DNA from: an uncultured Akkermansia sp.
GTDB taxonomy: Bacteria > Verrucomicrobiota > Verrucomicrobiia > Verrucomicrobiales > Akkermansiaceae
Direction: 5' to 3'
Length of the DNA stretch: 64,000 nucleotides
Assembly: GCA_947630815.1 (NCBI GenBank)
Contig: CANRJD010000001.1
Coordinates: 34,127 to 98,126 of the forward strand
Shown: positions 13,810 to 30,928 of the stretch, in pieces
Position numbering within the stretch: the first letter of the stretch is position 1
Layout of the letters: every line of letters starts with the position of its first letter
Notes under the pieces: model-generated
Seen by the model: only the letters and a program-made list of their open reading frames with translations
The model's database searches: none
Told to the model about the DNA's origin: nothing
Made by a program: the position numbers and the translations under genes

Positions 13810-14111
13810 ATCACTCTCCCTCTACCTCCTAGCAAAAGACGAGCTCCGTGTCAAGCGAAATCAACAATCAGCACGCAGCAAACACACATGTCCCAATAAA
13901 ATCTTCTCCGGGTTCATTCAACCCATTCCTCATGCGGTCCCCATGGATGAAGAAGGTAAGCCAGCAAGAAGCCCAAACCATTGATGATTGAGCAAAGCCG
14001 TGAACCCGGCATGGTCTCACACAGGAGATTTTCCTTCTATCAACGCACCATCGTCTTCGAAAGTTCCGCTTTGCTTTTGTTTCGCAGGAACGCGCGTAGC
14101 GCGCTAGCATT

Positions 14112-20858: not shown

Positions 20859-21502
20859 CTGCCGCGTAGGCCGGGCATAACATCCCTAACTATAATACAT
20901 GTGTGGCTATCGTTAAGCCACTATGTCCCGCAACACTCTACGTTCGCGGGACGAAACGGCCGGGCTCTGCTTTCCCAGAGCCGGAGCCTTGGCAGAGCCT
21001 CTTGTTGAGGTCACTGCCATATAGTAGTAATCTGAATATTGCCCGGCTTTTTCTTTACCCGTATCGCTGGCGCAATATTTCTCAATACATGTGGAGGTCA
21101 TTGCCGGGGCGGCGGCAGGCGTATTCATGTTCACGCGTGCCGACATGACCGGCTGCTCCGTAATACGATCAGCACATGAGCGCATACGTATGGCGGTCTC
21201 AGTGCTGTCTTCAGCTTTAATCATCGTCACTCCGGACAATACGCTTCCCTGCGGCCTGCTTTGTGTGCAGCCGTTGCAGTTACGGAATCTGTCGGAAGTG
21301 ATGTTCATATTATCTTAGCTTACATCGGTAAGCCTCGCCGAGTTTACATTCGACCTCCGTAAACGTCAAGAAAAATTTGGAGGTTGAACGCATAAAATTT
21401 TTGGCTCTGTCCTACCACAGTGTTGATTTATGGGAAAGCGGCGCAAATTTGAAGTGATGTTGGAGGTGACGTGAGGTCGCTAAATATGTGGAATGAGACG
21501 AA

Positions 21503-22255
21503 GTGCAGCAGGACAGCAGGAAGCCTGTGACAATTTTATTGAATGGCTATTGGAGTCAGAAGCGCAGGCTGCGTGAGAAGAAGTCCATCAGTCAGATCGC
21601 TAAGCTCCCCGATCGTCATCGCGTCACTATTTATCGCGAAGTCAAGCGCGACTCGGTCTCGCAACTCAAGCATGATCTCACCGTATACCGCGCCTACCGC
21701 GCCCAGTTCGCCCAAGATAGAAGCAACGAGCAGAAGAGTGCTCATGGCCCTGCCTTAAAGATCGGCTCCAATCACCAGCTTGCCTCTCAACTCTCTGAGC
21801 TCATAGCAGGGAAGCTCAAGCACTCCCCCTATGCCGCCCGTCAAATACTCATCAGAAACGGCATCCACTGCCCTTTCTGCTCCCGTACAATCTACAATTA
21901 CATTGATCAGGGCATTATTGGCATCTTCCCCGTGATATGGTTCAAGGGCCTCGGAAGAAACGTAAAAAAATCTGTTCATCAACGTCTCTTCCATAACCAT
22001 ACCGGGGCTATCAGTATCGAGAATCGCCCTGAGGAATTTAACCGACGCAGAGACCTCGGTCACTTCGAGATGGATTGTGTCGTCGGTCCCCGTGGCTCCC
22101 ACGTCGCCTCAGTGCTCAAACCTTCAGCTCCATCTCATAGTAAAGTGGCACGAGCTGCATTCAATTTGTTCTTCTTTCTCCAGGCCTTGCTAGAAAAAGA
22201 AAAAAATATTGTTTTGGTTGTCATGGAATCAGGGGATTATGCGTTACCAACATAA
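21503..22255 (+). pseudogene. Truncated IS30-family transposase
   Basis: SISQIAK...HRVTIYREVKR, RTIYNYI, SIENRPEE...R.DLGHFEMDCVVG; homology ends before the rest of the DDE core. Confidence 0.85.
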
Positions 22256-22350
22256 ACAATTATATACGACAGGGTTAAGATAAGCTCTTAAATAGTCCCT
22301 ATCCAAAAGCCAATATATCATTTATTATCAGGACGGACGAGGGAAAGATA

Positions 22351-22380
22351 TGATGGGCATTTCTATGAGTCCATCAATGG
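22351..22380 (+). repeat. hsdS inversion site IR1-left
   Basis: tgatgggcatttctatgagtccatcaatgg, exact reverse complement of 26411-26440. Confidence 0.92.
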
Positions 22381-23650
22381 CGGGGAACCTGTCTGTATTG
22401 ACGACGATATTCCGTTTGATATCCCTGAGAGCTGGGAATGGTGTAGGCTGAAAAGCATTTGCTCCATAGCTACAGGTAAAAAGGATGCCAATTATGGTTC
22501 TCCAGATGGAGAATACCCCTTTTTTACGTGCGCAAAAGAACCAATCAAATGTAAATCGTATTCATTTGAAGGCGAATCATTGTTGCTAGCCGGCAATGGT
22601 GATATTGGCAATATCTCATACTATTCAGGTAAGTTCGAAGCGTACCAGAGAACTTATGTATTGCAGTCTTATGTAAGCGGATATTTACAATATATCCACA
22701 TCCACTTGTTATACAATTGGATAGAGTATAACAATGAAAAGATGTTTGGTAGTACAATCCCCTACATAAGATTAGGTAACATTGAGGAATATCTTGTTGC
22801 TCTGCCTCCCTTGGCCGAGCAGAGCAGAATACTATTAGCTGCCCAAAAACGAGAAGAATTAGTTTCAGTTTTACAGAACTCTCGCCGCCGGTATAAACGC
22901 ATTCTCTCCGAAACTCCTACTAGCCTACGCCAACAACTCATACAGGCGGCGATTCAGGGACAGCTCGTTCCTCAAAATCCGAATGACGAGCCAGCATCTG
23001 TTCTACTGGAGCGCATAGCTCAGGAACGTGCCTCAAAACTAGGCAAAAAGGCAGCTAAATCAATGAGCCGTATCGAGAGGCGTGGTAGTAAGACCTATGA
23101 ACTCTTTCCGGATGGAACAGAAAAGGATATTTCTGACGAGATTCCCTTTGAAACACCAACATCGTGGGAATGGAGCCGGTTACAAGCCTATTGTGTATAT
23201 GGAGAGGCGACTAGTGTTAAAGTACAGGATTGTCCGCTAGATACATGGATTTTAGATTTGGAGGATATAGAACCGCATTCAGGCGTAATATCACAACGTG
23301 TTACCGCTGAAAATAGATCATCTACCAGCAATAAATTCTGGTTTACTTCTGGCTCAGTCTTATACAGTAAATTGCGGCCATATTTGAATAAGGTAGTTGT
23401 TGCTGATTCGGACGGGTGCTGTACAACAGAAATTATCCCCATTAGTTTGTTCGCCAAAGCAAATCCTCATTATCTCCAACATTTGCTGATGTCTCCATTC
23501 TTCGTATCTGAAATAAACAAGGATTCATATGGAGTAAAGATGCCTCGAGCTGATAATAAACAGGTGAAAAAATTTCTTATTCCTGTACCACCTCTCCAAG
23601 AGCAGCACCGAATTGTTGAAAAACTCGGTGCGCTCTTGAAGTTGATATAG
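22352..23650 (+). CDS. hsdS: Silent hsdS cassette (TRD1b + conserved spacer + TRD2b), lacking the N-terminus
   Basis: Frame opens after a stop at 22289 with no ATG; reads DGHFYESINGGE...IPFDIPESWEWCRL, matching the expressed HsdS from residue about 67; two xPPLxEQ motifs. Confidence 0.88.
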   Translation, partial: DGHFYESINGGEPVCIDDDIPFDIPESWEWCRLKSICSIATGKKDANYGSPDGEYPFFTCAKEPIKCKSYSFEGESLLLAGNGDIGNISYYSGKFEAYQRTYVLQSYVSGYLQYIHIHLLYNWIEYNNEKMFGSTIPYIRLGNIEEYLVALPPLAEQSRILLAAQKREELVSVLQNSRRRYKRILSETPTSLRQQLIQAAIQGQLVPQNPNDEPASVLLERIAQERASKLGKKAAKSMSRIERRGSKTYELFPDGTEKDISDEIPFETPTSWEWSRLQAYCVYGEATSVKVQDCPLDTWILDLEDIEPHSGVISQRVTAENRSSTSNKFWFTSGSVLYSKLRPYLNKVVVADSDGCCTTEIIPISLFAKANPHYLQHLLMSPFFVSEINKDSYGVKMPRADNKQVKKFLIPVPPLQEQHRIVEKLGALLKLI

Positions 23651-24457
23651 TTACCAAGTGATTACCGTATCTACTATCTCCCGCTGCTCGGCATGTGTTC
23701 GGCGGAGGTAGATGCGTGTCGTCTCAATATTGGAATGCCCCATGAGATCTGCCAGCAAAGCAATGTCATTGTATTTCTCGATGAAGTTCTTAGCAAAACG
23801 ATGCCGGAAGGAGTGGGGATAAACCACCTGTGCGTCTAATCCGTATTTAATGCCCAGCTTCTTCAATTTACTACCAAGGCCTGTAGGAGTCATTACTTTT
23901 CCCCTCCTATTCAGGAAGATAAAACCGCTCTCGATTTTAGCCTCTGCTAGCCATTCGAGAGCAGACATGCGCAATGCCTCTGGTATATAAATGCGGCGTG
24001 TTTTGCCGCCTTTGGAATTGATGTCGAGATACCCAATCCTGACGTGCTCAACCTTTATCTTCAGCAGTTCACTAATGCGGGCTCCTGTCGCCGCCAAAAA
24101 GCGAACGATGAAATGCCATTTTTTTCGTCCATCTTTGAGTAATGAGTCCCTCAGATACTCGTAGTCAGGTTGAGAAATCACGTTCTCAAGGTACGGCTTT
24201 TGTTGAAGCTTAACATGTGCCAACTGCCATTCCTTTTTACCGAGGTACTCCAGATAGGCATTGATTCCGCATATCCTGATGTTAACGGTTTTTGTTTTGA
24301 AGTTTTCAATGAGATAGAGCTTGTACTTCTGCAATTTATCGAGCGTTATACGCCCATACAGTTGCTTGAACTGAGCAACCGCATACAGATACAAACTAAC
24401 GGTATTCTGCGCCCTTTTTTGAAGGTGCAGCCAGCTTTCGAATGTAGTCTTGGACAT
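23651..24457 (-). CDS. Tyrosine recombinase (hsdS invertase)
   Basis: TGARISE, KGGK, HSFRH, LMGH, TTRIY catalytic residues; lies between hsdS cassettes. Confidence 0.92.
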   Translation of the reverse strand: MSKTTFESWLHLQKRAQNTVSLYLYAVAQFKQLYGRITLDKLQKYKLYLIENFKTKTVNIRICGINAYLEYLGKKEWQLAHVKLQQKPYLENVISQPDYEYLRDSLLKDGRKKWHFIVRFLAATGARISELLKIKVEHVRIGYLDINSKGGKTRRIYIPEALRMSALEWLAEAKIESGFIFLNRRGKVMTPTGLGSKLKKLGIKYGLDAQVVYPHSFRHRFAKNFIEKYNDIALLADLMGHSNIETTRIYLRRTHAEQREIVDTVITW

Positions 24458-24464
24458 GTCCCTA

Positions 24465-25028
24465 TTATAGGGCTATGTACCACAATATCTTGTCCAACGT
24501 CTTTGCTATCCTTAGTTGCTCTGCAAGAGGAGGAACAGGATATAGAAAATCTTCAATATTTTCGCTGCTTATTGATGGTGAATTATCACCTTTCATAAAC
24601 AAATTGAGCCCTTGAATTACATAAGGCGACAGAAATAAGGAATACGTAAAATCAGGGTTAAGTACTTTAGACCGTACCACATAAAAGCCAGTTGAAGCAA
24701 TGGCATCAGCGTATAGATTCCCAACCAATGCTATATTCTCCAGATATGGACGAACTAAGGAAAAGAGTACATCTCCTGATTCCAGTATACGGCGGGCTCT
24801 GCTAGGAGCATTTTCCTTTTTAGTCGGCTTCCCTGATTTGATTATGTGTCTTTTGTTGTCTATGGCGTCAATATCAATGTACAAGAAATCTTTTTCTGGC
24901 GTTCTATTTTTAGTCTCCTCGAAAATTGATTTGCCTTTAGCCCATTCCCACGACGCTGGTATTTCAAAGGGAATCTTGTCAGAAATATCCTTTTCCGTAC
25001 CATCTGAAAGGAGCTCATAGGTCTTACT
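24465..25028 (-). CDS. hsdS: Silent half hsdS cassette (TRD2c)
   Basis: Begins at agtaagac 7 nt after the hsdS stop: SKTYELLSDGTEKDISDKIPFEIPASWEW...VRPYL...STGF...VPPLAEQ. Confidence 0.85.
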   Translation of the reverse strand, partial: SKTYELLSDGTEKDISDKIPFEIPASWEWAKGKSIFEETKNRTPEKDFLYIDIDAIDNKRHIIKSGKPTKKENAPSRARRILESGDVLFSLVRPYLENIALVGNLYADAIASTGFYVVRSKVLNPDFTYSLFLSPYVIQGLNLFMKGDNSPSISSENIEDFLYPVPPLAEQLRIAKTLDKILWYIAL

Positions 25029-25035
25029 GTCCTGT

Positions 25036-26640
25036 TCAATTGTTTAGAGTTTTGAGTAATAAGCCTAATCTGTTGCAAATGCAAACTTGCTCTTCTGCCG
25101 GAGGAATTGGGCATAGAAGCTTCTTTAGCATTGATTGAGTCACCTGATAAATAGTCGTTGTGTTGGCATCATCTAGCTGTTCTCTAAAAAGCCGAGACGA
25201 GAAAAAATAATACAAATATCGATTTGATACAGAAATAAATTTGGCCATAAACGCTCCATAGGCATCACCATTTCTTTCTACTATGGCCGTTTTTCCCACC
25301 AAGTTTTTGCTCCCATTTCGTGCACAAATTAGCAAATCTCCCTGATTTATATAAGCTCTATCCGGGATTTTCATTTCTACGTGTAGTACGTCGTCATAGC
25401 TTATTTTTCCATTTTGGATGTTGTTAGCCCTTAGAACAGCAGTTCCTTTTTCTCGGACATCACTAGGACTGTATGTGAGCCCTATATAAGCTTCTCCTAC
25501 CTGTTCTAGCCTACACCATACCCAATTTTCAGGTAAATCAAAGGGGATTTCATCACTAATATCCTTTTCAGAACCATCAGAAAAAATCTCATGATAGGTA
25601 GCATGAGTCTTACTACCACGCCTCTCGATTCTGCTCATTGATTTAGCCGCCTTTTTGCCCAGTTTGGTGGTGCGTTCCTGAGCTATGCGTTCCAGTAGAA
25701 CAGTTGCAGGCTCGTCATTCGGATTTTGAGGAACGAGTTGTCCTTGGATGGCCGCCTGTATGAGCTGTTGGCGCAAACTTGTGGGAGTTTCTGAGAGAAT
25801 GCGTTTATAATATCGACGGGAGATGGATATTGTTTCTAATTTTTCAAATAACGAAGCTATCTCATTTACTATATTCTCTTGTTCTTTAGCCGGAGGAATG
25901 GGAATAAGTAAATTTTCTAAAACTCCTATATAAAGTTCTTTTTGATTTGTGCTTCCAGAGAGATTTTCTTCTAAATATTTTTGAGTTTCTACGGATTCAA
26001 CAAAGGAAAAAATGAAAAAGGAGTTAATAGCATTGAATGTGCGTACAACTGTTACATGCGAATCAGGTACAGTAAAGGGATAATGCCCTAAACACGATTC
26101 GTTGAAAACTCGCGTTCTACATACAGTACCTGTTCCTGTTGAATTGATTAAAATATCACCACTTTGCAATTTATATGCCTCTTGCCATTTTTCTATAGTC
26201 TTAGGGTCAAGAAATCGTGCTTTTTCTAGAGAAACACCTCCTTCTTTCAAGTTGCATTTTTGAGCAAAGACTGGATACTTTTTTTCAGTTTCAGAGTACT
26301 TAGGTGATTTCCCCCTTGATAGAAAAGAGCATACAGAAGTCAGCCTACACCATTCCCAACTATCCGGGGTTTCAAAGGGAATATCGTCATCTATACAGGT
26401 TGCTTCCCCTCCATTGATGGACTCATAGAAATGCCCATCACGTCTAAAGATTCGGGAGGTACTCTTGGGCTTCTTTATTTTCCTCTCCCTAATCAGTCTC
26501 TCTCGCTCCTCGGCAATACGTTCCAACAGCTTAGACGCGGGCTCGTCCTCAGGATTTTGAGGAACCAGTTCTCCTCGAATTGCAGATTCGAGTATCTTCT
26601 TACGCAGGGCATCAATGATGCGTTCTATCTTATCGCTCAT
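25036..26640 (-). CDS. hsdS: Type I R-M specificity subunit (expressed allele TRD1a+TRD2a)
   Basis: AIRGELVPQNP.DEPA twice, PDSWEWCRL/PENWVWCRL, IPP..EQ; ATGA overlap with hsdM. Confidence 0.95.
   Translation of the reverse strand: MSDKIERIIDALRKKILESAIRGELVPQNPEDEPASKLLERIAEERERLIRERKIKKPKSTSRIFRRDGHFYESINGGEATCIDDDIPFETPDSWEWCRLTSVCSFLSRGKSPKYSETEKKYPVFAQKCNLKEGGVSLEKARFLDPKTIEKWQEAYKLQSGDILINSTGTGTVCRTRVFNESCLGHYPFTVPDSHVTVVRTFNAINSFFIFSFVESVETQKYLEENLSGSTNQKELYIGVLENLLIPIPPAKEQENIVNEIASLFEKLETISISRRYYKRILSETPTSLRQQLIQAAIQGQLVPQNPNDEPATVLLERIAQERTTKLGKKAAKSMSRIERRGSKTHATYHEIFSDGSEKDISDEIPFDLPENWVWCRLEQVGEAYIGLTYSPSDVREKGTAVLRANNIQNGKISYDDVLHVEMKIPDRAYINQGDLLICARNGSKNLVGKTAIVERNGDAYGAFMAKFISVSNRYLYYFFSSRLFREQLDDANTTTIYQVTQSMLKKLLCPIPPAEEQVCICNRLGLLLKTLNN
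26411..26440 (-). repeat. hsdS inversion site IR1-right
   Basis: Exact inverted copy of 22351-22380. Confidence 0.92.
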
Positions 26641-28052
26641 GCTTCGGAAGTTTGGTCGGAGTTAAGGAGAGCTTCAAGGGCAGCAAAGGCTTTATTTTCC
26701 TTTTGTAATTCCTCCTTGAGCATCTGCATCAAATCTTCAATGGAGCCCTCGATAGTATCAACTTCATCTTTGAGCCATTTGATATCCAGAGATGTTTTAT
26801 CGCGCTGCAAAATCTCCTCGTAGGTATAGCAACGCCATCTTTCATCCTGCACCGCATGCCGGTCGGGAGCCTCGTACGCTGCAATAAATCCGGCAAAGTA
26901 TTCCTCCTTCAGAGGATTAGTTTTGCCAAAGGAGGGCATGTTGGAGCGGAGATCGTAGATCCATACCTCTGAGGTATTGCCTTGGTCTGTTCTGCCTCGG
27001 GTGAAGAAAAGGACATTTGTTTTTACTCCCTGCGCATAGAAAATGCCGGAGGGTAAGCGGAGAATGGTGTGAAGATTACACTTCTCCATTAGGTCTCGGC
27101 GTACTAATTCACCATCGCCATCCGCAAAGAGGACATTATCCGGCAGAACAACCGCAGCTCGGGCGGTTCCCGTAGTTTTAAGACTCCGGTAAATATGCTG
27201 CAGGAAATTGAGCTGCTTATTACTGGTGGGGAAAGTCAGGTCATCTCGAGTGGCCCGTTCGCCGCCTCGTTTTGTGCCAAAAGGAGGATTTGCGAGTACC
27301 AAATCATACGTCCGGAGTACTTTACCTGCATTCGACAATGTATCAGCGCATAATATATGCCCATTGATGCCGTGGAGCATGGCATTCATGAGAGCCAAAC
27401 GGTGAGTGTCTTTAACTAACTCGGTTCCGGTAAAAGCAACTTCATTTTCAAAGCGAGCCGCTTCCTCATCAAGGTCAAAGAAATCGTCCGTGTGTTCTCT
27501 CACATATTGGCTAGCTGCTATCATGAAGCCGAACGTACCGCAAGCCGGGTCGTTACACAATTCTCCAGGCTGGGGCTTCATCAGCCGTGTTATCACATTA
27601 ATCAGGACGCGAGGCGTGAAATATTGACCAGCCCCGGATTTCTTCTCATTAGCATTCTTCTCCAAGAGTCCCTCGTAGAGATTACCTAATCCCTCCTCGC
27701 GAGCAGAGAACCAGTCGAGCTGGTCAATTGTAGTGATTATTTTCTCCAGATTTTTAGGCTCGGAAATATTTGAGACAGCTTCATCATAGATGGCCTGAAC
27801 GCGGCCGGTGCATTCAGTGCCCAGATGATCCAACAATTTTTTATAGAAAGACTTCAACTCCACACCACTGCGAGCGGTTAGGTTGTCCCAACGATATCCT
27901 TCCGGAATCTGCGTTTCCGTACCCGTTTCTTTTGCCATTTTAAGGAAAAGGATGTAGGTAAGCTCAGTAACGTACTGGTGGTATGTAATGCCGTCATCGC
28001 GTAAGACGTTGCACAGGTTCCAGAGTTTGGTGATAATTTCTTGAGTAGTCAT
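26637..28052 (-). CDS. hsdM: Type I R-M methyltransferase (EcoKI-like)
   Basis: KLWNLCNVLRDDG, GQYFTPR, DPACGTFG, NPPF. Confidence 0.96.
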   Translation of the reverse strand: MTTQEIITKLWNLCNVLRDDGITYHQYVTELTYILFLKMAKETGTETQIPEGYRWDNLTARSGVELKSFYKKLLDHLGTECTGRVQAIYDEAVSNISEPKNLEKIITTIDQLDWFSAREEGLGNLYEGLLEKNANEKKSGAGQYFTPRVLINVITRLMKPQPGELCNDPACGTFGFMIAASQYVREHTDDFFDLDEEAARFENEVAFTGTELVKDTHRLALMNAMLHGINGHILCADTLSNAGKVLRTYDLVLANPPFGTKRGGERATRDDLTFPTSNKQLNFLQHIYRSLKTTGTARAAVVLPDNVLFADGDGELVRRDLMEKCNLHTILRLPSGIFYAQGVKTNVLFFTRGRTDQGNTSEVWIYDLRSNMPSFGKTNPLKEEYFAGFIAAYEAPDRHAVQDERWRCYTYEEILQRDKTSLDIKWLKDEVDTIEGSIEDLMQMLKEELQKENKAFAALEALLNSDQTSEA

Positions 28053-30928
28053 GCAGATTGTGTGGTATCGAGGTTATAAAGGTATTGATTAAGTTCGTTA
28101 ATGAGTTCATGAAGCTGGTTGCCGAAGACTTTATTAAAGAAGGAGAATCCGCCTCTATTCCTGAATTGGGGAGCTTCATTGAATGAATCCACGGTTAGCA
28201 CCGTCTCATTGATTAGATATTTTTCGATGCGATCAAGCCAGTTTTGCTCGCTCTTGCTGAAATTATGGGTCTTTCGTAGCGTGTTCACAGCCTGCCGAAT
28301 GCGGTCTTCATGGTTCAGTAAAGGCGTCCCTAGTGCTTGTTTACGAATGATGCTGATAATATCAGCGGTAATTTCAGCATTGCTCATCTGGGAAAGGGCC
28401 GTATTGAGCTGTTGCACTGTGTACCCATCTCGGGCAAGGGCTCGTTTCAGCGATCTGAGGGAGTCTCGTGTCAGGTCAGAAGGTTTTGTACACACTATGC
28501 TCAGAGCCGTAATTTTGTCTCGGTTCTCTGTTACATATCGGGTAAAAGCTTTCAAGTAGTCTTCTGGGGTGTTGGTCCCATTGCCGAATCCTCGCGTATG
28601 TAGAACGTCGCCATCCGGCTTGTTGGAAATCAAGGTAGGGATGCCTTTAGGTTTCACCTTATCCAACCAAACGAATAGAGGTCGATGTTCTATCAATTCA
28701 ACCTTGGCTATATGGGTAGGCATATTCTTGATGTGTTCCATGAATCGCTGAGGGGTTTGCCCATCTGCATAGTCTGCAAAATGCTCATTGAAAGAATCCA
28801 CCTCACCGTTCTGGAGTCGCTGCACTTTGCGGCGCAGCTTGGCAATAATCTGCACCACCTGAGCCTCGATTTGTTCCTGTTCTTCAAGCTTGTGCAAGCC
28901 GTCTACAAGTTCAATAAAAGACACATAGGGATTCACTCCCACCGGCTGCATTGTGTCAACATCCTTTAAGGCCTCACAAACGCCAACGCAATCGTAAATA
29001 TCGAAGTGGTCTTTGTGTATCTCCGGGCAGAGGCGTGTCGCTCGACCTTTCATCTGTTCATACAGGATACGCGACTTTACCTGACGCATGAACACCAGAT
29101 TAGTGATGGACGGAACATCCACGCCCGTTGTCAGCAAATCAACAGTTACAACGATAGACGGATATTCCTCGTTTTTGAATCTTCGAATAGCCATTTTAAT
29201 TCGGTCTTTATTGCCGTTGGCCACACGTCCCGTAATCTTAAGGATAGCATCGTTACTCACTCCTGTTTTGGCATAAATTTCACGGAGTATTTCCACTATT
29301 AAATCAGCGTGTTGATCATTGACAGCATAAATTAAAGTCTTGCCTTGAGTACTGGAAGCTTCCGGGTCTATATGATGAGCCACTTCTTTGAGTACTTCCC
29401 TGTTAAAGGCCTCTGTAATGACTCGTCGGTTGAAATGCTCAACAGCAAAATCCATTTCATCTTCTAATTCCCATGAGCGAATATTTATGCGGGGCGAGTA
29501 GCCTGTCACTGTTTCACCTTTCTTGAAATGAATGCCCTTCCGGCTCAGTTCTGTGGAAATAAGATGCGGGGCGTCGTGGTCAACAAGATAGCCGTCAAGG
29601 ACAGCTTCAGGGTAAGTATAGGTATACACCGGCTCTCCAAAAATCTGAGTTGTGTGCAATGCCGGAGTAGCAGTTAACGCAATCTTAACAGCATCGAAAT
29701 AATCAACGACATAGCGGTACTTGCTCTGATAATCACGCTGGTCCCGGAAAAGGATTTCCGTATCACTCATTTCCCTGTCAAATATATATCCTCGGTGAGC
29801 TTCATCAATGATTATTAAATCGTAGTCAGATACAGCCGGGCGAGTATCATTGTCTCCGCAATACAGGATACGTTTAACTAGGCCTTGGACAGTAGAAACA
29901 TGGATTTTGGTTTCCTTTTCTACAGTTGTGTCGTCGAGCCCTTTTATATCGTAGATTTCATCTAACGTCATGAGCTCCTCTAATTTGACCTCTTTGAAAA
30001 CGTCTAGTGCCTGTGTGCCCAGCTCAGTTCTATCTACAAGGAAGAGGATTCGGCGAAAGCGTTCCGTTTTGAGGAAACGATATATCATGCCCAGCACGGT
30101 ACGAGTTTTACCTGTACCAGTAGCCATGGCCAGCAAGGCCGATTTCTTGCCCTCCATGATGGCATCCTCTGCCGCTTGAATGGCATTGATCTGGTAGTAT
30201 CGCAACCCCAAGCCAGATGGGTTGCGCAGAAAATCATAAGGCAGCTCCTTCAGTCGTTCGTTCTTACTCACGATATCCTCCTTTAGTTTCTCCAGCATGC
30301 CATCCGGGCTCATCCATCCCAGCAGAGCGGACGGTATGTTGCTTTTTTTCCTCAAATCCAGCCACCAGATGCCGGATTTAGTTTTGACCTGTTCGGAGTA
30401 ATCTCTGCCATTGGTTGTAAAAATGAACGGCACATGGTATTCCTCCCATTCGCCTATGCAAAGGGAATAATCGCAACGACGAACACTTCGGGCATATTCT
30501 TTCCCCTGAAAATCAATTTCTGATGCTACATCTTTGCCCGACTTCTTAGCCTCTATGAAGCCGACTAGCTTTTCCTCGACGAATAAAGCATAATCTGCGG
30601 CTCCTCCGTCAACCACATCCGAATCAACAGGCCATTCGGCTATTGCCATGTTGCGTCCTTTCGCCGGACGAGTGCCATTAGAATATCGAAGCTCCTTAGT
30701 GTTAGCCTCCCATCCAACTTGCCTTAACTGTTTATCTATAAGCTCACGCGTCTCTTTCTCTGTCAACTCGTTCCGCGCGAATTGACCGGAGTAAGAATCT
30801 AAAAAAGAATCCTCCTTCATATTGTATGCCATTCTGTAAGTCGTAGACGCGGAGCAATGTACCATGAAAACTCGAAGTAAGCAAGGAAAAGTATGATAGG
30901 ATTTTACTATCATACTTTTCCTTCTCAA
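28049..30928 (-). CDS. hsdR: Type I R-M restriction subunit (start probably about 30830)
   Basis: ADY...IEAKK nuclease, MATGTGKT, DEAHR, TATP, QMKGRATR. Confidence 0.95.
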   Translation of the reverse strand: MRRKSMIVKSYHTFPCLLRVFMVHCSASTTYRMAYNMKEDSFLDSYSGQFARNELTEKETRELIDKQLRQVGWEANTKELRYSNGTRPAKGRNMAIAEWPVDSDVVDGGAADYALFVEEKLVGFIEAKKSGKDVASEIDFQGKEYARSVRRCDYSLCIGEWEEYHVPFIFTTNGRDYSEQVKTKSGIWWLDLRKKSNIPSALLGWMSPDGMLEKLKEDIVSKNERLKELPYDFLRNPSGLGLRYYQINAIQAAEDAIMEGKKSALLAMATGTGKTRTVLGMIYRFLKTERFRRILFLVDRTELGTQALDVFKEVKLEELMTLDEIYDIKGLDDTTVEKETKIHVSTVQGLVKRILYCGDNDTRPAVSDYDLIIIDEAHRGYIFDREMSDTEILFRDQRDYQSKYRYVVDYFDAVKIALTATPALHTTQIFGEPVYTYTYPEAVLDGYLVDHDAPHLISTELSRKGIHFKKGETVTGYSPRINIRSWELEDEMDFAVEHFNRRVITEAFNREVLKEVAHHIDPEASSTQGKTLIYAVNDQHADLIVEILREIYAKTGVSNDAILKITGRVANGNKDRIKMAIRRFKNEEYPSIVVTVDLLTTGVDVPSITNLVFMRQVKSRILYEQMKGRATRLCPEIHKDHFDIYDCVGVCEALKDVDTMQPVGVNPYVSFIELVDGLHKLEEQEQIEAQVVQIIAKLRRKVQRLQNGEVDSFNEHFADYADGQTPQRFMEHIKNMPTHIAKVELIEHRPLFVWLDKVKPKGIPTLISNKPDGDVLHTRGFGNGTNTPEDYLKAFTRYVTENRDKITALSIVCTKPSDLTRDSLRSLKRALARDGYTVQQLNTALSQMSNAEITADIISIIRKQALGTPLLNHEDRIRQAVNTLRKTHNFSKSEQNWLDRIEKYLINETVLTVDSFNEAPQFRNRGGFSFFNKVFGNQLHELINELNQYLYNLDTTQSA

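Follow-up and report, generated by a model that had tools for sequence, protein, structure and literature searches.

A putative six-allele invertible hsdS locus in an uncultured Akkermansia species from rabbit gut metagenomes

A puzzling feature of one Type I restriction-modification (R-M) locus in an uncultured Akkermansia species is that it holds, besides a complete set of genes for restriction (hsdR), modification (hsdM) and specificity (hsdS), two start-less hsdS cassettes and a tyrosine recombinase. Are these cassettes fixed in place, or do they supply alternative target recognition domains (TRDs) to the complete hsdS gene by DNA inversion? The locus lies in a stretch of 64,000 nucleotides (the window; GenBank assembly GCA_947630815.1, contig CANRJD010000001.1, positions 34,127 to 98,126) from a 2.09-Mb metagenome-assembled genome (MAG) that is 87% complete, and the R-M block, including the cassettes and their repeats, spans window positions 22346-30928. 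We propose that conservative, reciprocal inversion at three in-frame pairs of inverted repeats (IRs) very probably shuffles TRDs into the expressed hsdS, giving 2 x 3 = 6 HsdS proteins. To follow the orientation of the locus, public assemblies were searched for exact copies of the recombinase, HsdM, HsdS and orphan-TRD proteins, and the contigs returned were mapped to the window; the evidence on orientation comes from these assembled contigs (Logan contigs, k=31, and SPAdes-style contigs) and not from raw reads. The runs that hold DNA of the locus are rabbit gut metagenomes.

The layout of the locus is the starting point (Table 1). On the minus strand, the complete hsdR, hsdM and hsdS genes form a single operon with 4-nt ATGA overlaps, one between hsdR and hsdM and one between the hsdM stop and the ATG of hsdS, and these overlaps suggest that the operon hsdS is the expressed copy. 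Neither of the two further cassettes has a start codon or the conserved 5' end, and one of them, hsdS', is on the opposite strand. Its open frame begins before 22352 and runs to 23650, the earliest in-frame start being an internal TTG at 22580, while the frame of the orphan one-TRD cassette, TRD2'', is open from 25028, has no start codon and does not share the reading frame of the hsdS stop. An initial annotation of this DNA had already described an operon hsdS, a start-less two-TRD cassette on the opposite strand and a start-less single-TRD cassette, and the open reading frames (ORFs), Pfam matches and translations agree with it on all three. Pairwise identity among the five TRDs is only 23-34%; judged by this divergence, each allele would have a different target motif. 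Chimeric genes were built from the fixed N-terminal part, one of the two TRD1 blocks and one of the three TRD2 blocks, joined at the repeat cores, and all six are uninterrupted frames, of 534, 529, 529, 504, 499 and 499 amino acids (aa), in line with the earlier proposal of two TRD1 and three TRD2 alleles.

All three pairs of repeats lie in frame inside hsdS coding regions and contain perfectly conserved cores, which had been recognised beforehand. The perfect 30-bp repeat with its TGATGG...CCATCA dyad had been placed at the exact coordinates, and is the core of the longer IR1. A 203-bp repeat annotated at 22892-23094/25607-25809 and ending in 23 identical bp is real as well and forms part of IR2, and a 14-bp repeat (23087-23100/25015-25028), although real, had been understated, since it is the end of the much longer IR3. 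The short sequence AGTAAGAC is present at all three TRD2 junctions in a common reading frame (Ser-Lys-Thr), as the initial annotation had stated and as translation confirms, and its copy at 23087-23094 is common to the IR2 core and the IR3 core. By our own estimate, a 30-bp perfect run inside a 106-nt repeat of 86% identity is only mildly unexpected; the weight of the perfect cores comes from their conservation at the DNA level across species and from the crossovers observed inside them, both of which are described below. The AGTAAGAC copies at 25021 and 25607 are in direct orientation and 586 bp apart. This part of the earlier description stands, but the 586-bp deletion predicted from it was not seen, as no joint or contig skipping the interval between the direct copies is present among the Logan and assembly contigs examined.

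How could these elements produce six proteins? Only the hsdS joined to hsdR-hsdM has a start codon and the conserved segment at the N-terminus; the silent cassettes and the recombinase are located downstream. In the proposed mechanism, TRDs would be moved into this copy. Inversion at IR1 would swap the whole TRD1/TRD2 block, inversion at IR2 would exchange TRD2 of the expressed gene for TRD2' of the silent one, and inversion at IR3 would exchange TRD2' and TRD2'' in the silent position. The remaining alleles would be reached via IR3 followed by IR2 or IR1, and via IR2 followed by IR1. The resulting six HsdS proteins would then give rise to six methylation and restriction specificities.

Table 1. 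Positions of the R-M genes, cassettes, repeats and flanking element in the window. CR, conserved region.
Feature	Window position	Strand or orientation	Description
hsdR	28049..30928	(-)	959-aa ORF (954 aa in other assemblies); Pfam ResIII, Helicase_C, EcoEI_R_C, HSDR_N
hsdM	26637..28052	(-)	471 aa; PF02384 and PF12161; EcoKI-like by sequence
hsdS, operon copy	25036..26640	(-)	534 aa; PF01420 twice; order CR1 - TRD1 - CR2 - TRD2
TRD1	25823..26339	(-)	30% identical to TRD1'
TRD2	25036..25601	(-)	resembles EcoKI TRD1
TRD2'', orphan start-less one-TRD cassette	24465..25028	(-)	PF01420 on 139-aa ORF; carries right arm of IR3
Tyrosine recombinase	23651..24457	(-)	268 aa, PF00589; XerA/XerC-like, aligned over whole length
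hsdS', silent two-TRD cassette	22352..23650	(+)	PF01420 and translation; TRD1', CR2' and TRD2'; without CR1 or start codon
TRD1'	22452-22878	(+)	part of hsdS'
TRD2'	23174-23650	(+)	part of hsdS'
IR1	22346-22451 / 26340-26445	inverted	106 nt, 86%; 30-bp perfect core 22351-22380 / 26411-26440
IR2	22879-23099 / 25602-25822	inverted	221 nt, 86%; 23-bp perfect core 23072-23094 / 25607-25629; right arm is CR2
IR3	23087-23173 / 24942-25028	inverted	87 nt, 89%; 14-bp core 23087-23100 / 25015-25028 is the outer end
IS30-family transposase fragment	21503..22255	(+)	HTH_38; NF033563 profile positions 2-148 of 267; left edge of island

Alternative orientations, which the initial annotation had suggested as a check, are indeed present in DNA from independent assemblies: contigs that are 100% identical to the window outside the junctions carry the IR1, the IR2, the IR3 and the combined IR1+IR3 inversion, and the arrangements do not differ in their flanks, which are 100% identical over 4-10 kb. 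The reference arrangement itself recurs at 100% identity in at least seven other samples (ERZ27249610, ERZ27249129, ERZ27249358, ERZ27249352, ERR10663759, ERZ27249252 and, at IR1, ERZ27060145). The IR1 inversion is found in about eight samples, and IR1 is inverted in about half of all samples that hold the locus. In contig L070 (ERZ27249068), window 26440-22351 is flipped between unchanged flanks, and the contig encodes the predicted 499-aa HsdS with TRD1' and TRD2'. Contigs L072, L082, L100, L079 and L086 have the same IR1-inverted junctions, as does a Logan contig of run X6. For IR2, both reciprocal junctions (25606 to 23094 and 23072 to 25630) are seen in contig L071 (SRR27728183) and in two contigs of run X1, the latter at full depth (46-50x). 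As for IR3, contig L073 (ERZ27249440) has 25028-23087 flipped, and L105 (ERZ27060145) has the right-hand junction. At its end, contig L073 passes through the IR1 core into the left flank in reverse complement; this IR1-inverted junction beside the IR3 flip makes L073 an IR1+IR3 double inversion, with TRD1'+TRD2'' as the implied expressed allele. Taken together, the contigs show or directly imply four of the six expressed alleles.

Inverted repeats are places where assemblers may go wrong, and the alternative arrangements could in principle be artefacts. For example, the 30-bp IR1 core is as long as k-1 for k=31, and Logan contigs are broken or joined there. The assembly graph could account for the joint in X6 and for the Logan contigs that end at 26411, and neither was counted as independent proof of inversion. 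The junctions at IR2 and IR3, on the other hand, share only 23 and 14 bases, which is less than k-1, so that contigs crossing them need real reads, and six SPAdes-style contigs, which come from different samples, have the IR1-inverted junctions with discriminating bases on both sides of the core. We therefore consider it extremely improbable that the arrangements are artefacts. A set of short contigs from metagenome JAEIGA01 (L010-L012 and L041-L043) was excluded from the analysis, as they come from related strains with different TRDs and their break points could reflect strain mixing.

Genuine inversions could still have arisen in more than one way, and here the positions of the crossovers are informative. 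All recombinants switch arm inside a perfect core, at 22351-22380 for IR1, 23072-23094 for IR2 and 23087-23100 for IR3, and the IR2 and IR3 crossover intervals intersect exactly on the 8-base AGTAAGAC, making this sequence the probable crossover site for TRD2 exchange. Two longer perfect runs, of 29 bp at 22964 in IR2 and of 18 bp at 23120 in IR3, are not used. Crossovers at fixed cores fit site-specific exchange and would be less expected of general homologous recombination, with the proviso that the independent events are few. The alternative to be weighed is that rare, RecA-type homologous recombination between the repeats of 87-221 nt generated the arrangements, with the recombinase being unrelated or inactive, and that they represent stable strain polymorphisms and no programmed switch. 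The repeats are long enough for such recombination, but the crossovers lie in the 23-bp and 14-bp cores, which are TRD-proximal and have AGTAAGAC in common, and not in the longest runs. Each arrangement comes mostly from a different sample, as might be expected of strain polymorphisms; however, the flanks show no differences between arrangements over 4-10 kb, and about half of the samples are IR1-inverted. In addition, pneumococcal spnIII recombination is described in one report (PMC6620402) as independent of all known site-specific recombinases, whereas in the Akkermansia locus the recombinase is intact and has homologues that are linked to hsdS loci across phyla. On balance, homologous recombination without a dedicated enzyme appears very unlikely, and inversion at specific sites is the reading that we prefer.

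Contig ends provide a further argument against stable strain polymorphisms, since those at core-anchored 55-mers suggest mixtures within samples. In contigs L073, L074, L076, L079 and L080, an end lies at a distance of exactly one 55-mer from the boundary of a core: L079, L080 and L073 stop 25 nt past the 30-bp IR1 core, L074 starts at the IR1 core boundary, and the start and end of L076 are 55-mers anchored on the 23-bp IR2 core. Because core-anchored 55-mers would be unique in a homogeneous genome, a graph branch at these points implies that both orientations were in the sample. The contig ends are thus suggestive of both orientations coexisting within single samples, and switching within the population may be frequent.

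Which enzyme might be responsible? The tyrosine recombinase encoded between the cassettes is the obvious candidate and, as the initial annotation had stated, it is intact: it has a PF00589 domain, and the catalytic residues R127, H215-x-x-R218, H241 and Y250 are present and align with those of XerA (4a8e). Its gene is located inside all three invertible segments and is consequently flipped by every inversion. Homologues with 53-61% identity, from Bacteroidales, Bacilli, Erysipelotrichaceae and others, also adjoin hsdS fragments, often with hsdM and hsdR nearby. Closer to home, related loci are present in MAGs of Akkermansia from the guts of rabbit, sheep, deer and other herbivores. The loci of other herbivore-gut Akkermansia species (L047-L054 and L007-L009) have two or three hsdS cassettes and a recombinase with 74-98% identity; their TRDs differ, and their IR1 and IR2 cores are nearly identical at the nucleotide level. 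Based on its location and sequence, the adjacent recombinase probably catalyses the inversions. A candidate recombinase-binding motif common to the IR1 core and the IR2/IR3 cores was also considered, but the only sequence that they have in common, CTATGAG, is explained by homologous linker codons and was rejected.

The recombinase ATG follows 7 nt after the stop of the orphan cassette, and a TATAAT sequence is present 6 nt upstream of the ATG (window 24458-24470, minus strand). This placement would be compatible with a leaderless transcript or with read-through from hsdS, both of which are possible. Between 25036 and 24457 the minus strand has no predicted terminator, and a scan of the DNA for sigma-70 promoters and terminators gave matches that are no more frequent than in shuffled sequence. 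A more far-reaching version of the model can be sketched, in which the one recombinase would act on two unrelated sites, namely the three-copy 8-bp AGTAAGAC for TRD2 exchange and the 30-bp dyad for exchange of the whole block. The transcription of its own gene would depend on the switch, because only the reference orientation puts the gene downstream of hsdR-hsdM-hsdS on the same strand; switching rates would depend on the state of the locus, and the outcome would be a six-methylome phasevarion in a gut mucin degrader. We regard this extended version as unlikely, albeit worth stating.

Several points weigh against programmed inversion by the adjacent recombinase at all three pairs of repeats. 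The IR2 inversion is seen in one or two runs only, as X1 and L071 may be the same run, and the alleles TRD1+TRD2'' and TRD1'+TRD2 are not among the arrangements in the contigs examined. Coverage is 2-7x in most assemblies. The case for mixtures within samples depends on contig ends and on an assumed final k of 55 for SPAdes, again at low coverage. Finally, there is no evident recombinase-binding motif common to the IR1 core and the IR2/IR3 core. Even with these points taken into account, site-specific inversion of the hsdS locus remains by far the most probable explanation of the data.

The locus has a clear precedent in SpnD39III of Streptococcus pneumoniae (ivr/cod, with the recombinase CreX/PsrA), for which Manso et al. 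(2014; PMC4190663) described six alleles and IR series of 85, 333 and 15 bp. The comparison had been drawn in the initial annotation and holds for both architecture and cassette logic. Both loci consist of an hsdR-hsdM-hsdS operon, a separate tyrosine recombinase, and one one-TRD and one two-TRD truncated cassette, and both have three IR series (here of 106, 221 and 87 nt, with 30-, 23- and 14-bp cores) that give 2 TRD1 x 3 TRD2 = 6 alleles. There are differences as well. The host belongs to the Verrucomicrobiota and not the Bacillota, the modification and restriction subunits of the Akkermansia locus are EcoKI-like, its one-TRD cassette shares the strand of hsdS and separates that gene from the recombinase, and its recombinase gene lies inside all three invertible segments, unlike the situation in the pneumococcus.

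More generally, invertible hsdS loci are well known and have already been listed in Verrucomicrobia, and the locus described here is a well-documented further member. The 'epigenetic invertons' of Huang et al. (2020), of which that survey gives 827 REBASE loci, 27 of them in Verrucomicrobia (PMC7672463), resemble the present locus, as far as they are described there, in having several hsdS genes, IRs inside the hsdS coding regions, a locus-encoded invertase and a host-associated bacterium. In the present case the host is an uncultured herbivore-gut Akkermansia species, and alternative states are documented directly in public assemblies. Further surveys of such loci are those of Atack et al. 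2020 (PMC7394358) and Milman et al. 2023 (PMC9881135), and Ni et al. 2025 reported thousands of putative cases in gut metagenomes (PMC11741434). A phase-variable Type I R-M system of Bacteroides fragilis (Ben-Assa et al. 2020, PMC7641763) is similar in that a gut commensal undergoes reversible inversions in a specificity gene. In the literature library that was searched, no report of hsdS inversion states in Akkermansia specifically was found.

To which Type I family does the system belong? HsdM matches the EcoKI M protein (2y7c_B) with 441 bits (E 4e-131), compared with 48 bits for the EcoR124II M protein. HsdR passes the NCBIfam model NF008521 with 1196 bits against a cut-off of 729, a model for which one of the control genomes scores above the cut-off and E. 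coli belongs to the control genomes with a match; HsdR fails the EcoAI model (250 vs. 550) and the EcoR124-type hsdR models. Membership of Type IA is classically defined experimentally, by subunit complementation, antibody cross-reaction and DNA hybridisation with EcoKI. At the level of sequence, an EcoKI-like or Type IA label for HsdM and HsdR is reasonable, and in this respect the HsdM and HsdR scores back up the 'EcoKI-like' designation given earlier. The domain order of HsdS (CR-TRD-CR-TRD) is a circular permutation of that of EcoKI HsdS; the central region of the Akkermansia protein aligns with the conserved region at the C-terminus of its EcoKI counterpart. TRD2 (window 25036-25540) aligns with EcoKI TRD1 over approximately 165 residues, including the RANNIQNGK stretch. 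EcoKI TRD1 reads the AAC half-site, and through this likeness the reference allele may share the AAC half-site with EcoKI.

Two samples carry deletions in the R-M genes. In ERZ27249610 (contig L077, approximately 3.8x coverage), a 5-bp deletion at window 29986-29990 splits hsdR into ORFs of 316 and 640 aa, which may correspond to a restriction-negative, modification-positive variant. The IR1-inverted contig L100 (ERZ27249413, approximately 2.6x coverage) has a 113-bp deletion in hsdM (window 27256-27368) and additionally a 13-bp deletion in the orphan cassette TRD2'' (window 24607-24619); these could be real decay or assembly error.

With regard to its surroundings, the R-M block has a G+C content of 0.40-0.48 vs. 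0.51-0.60 in the flanks. The IS30-like/HTH_38 region at its left edge (window 21500-22100) has a summed contig depth of 300-2600x in the rabbit gut runs, compared with approximately 46x for the locus, and many variants, implying that this is a multi-copy or widely shared element. The right neighbour of the block is a prophage with genes for a large serine recombinase (integrase) and DUF2924 proteins. Contig L080 (ERZ27249252) follows the window through hsdR and diverges at approximately 31553, which puts the R-M locus beside the prophage and not inside it. The earlier term 'phage-linked island' is therefore apt for a low-GC block between an IS30-like fragment and a prophage, but would be misleading if taken to mean that the locus is part of the phage. 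A dispersed repeat of approximately 65 nt (L080:831-895; window ~13883-13947 and ~31553) occurs at more than 40 places in the genome with 80-88% identity, and looks like a repetitive extragenic palindromic (REP) element or a miniature inverted-repeat transposable element (MITE). One copy is at the L080 divergence point, near the left end of the prophage.

Since the mechanism is already well described in other bacteria, the value of the present findings is confirmatory and not conceptual. Akkermansia is, however, among the most studied gut commensals. A six-way specificity switch, if true, would alter the range of phages and foreign DNA that a lineage admits, and could affect gene expression across a clonal population. 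Given that the states of the locus can be read from existing metagenome assemblies, it offers a ready natural system for measuring such switching in the gut.

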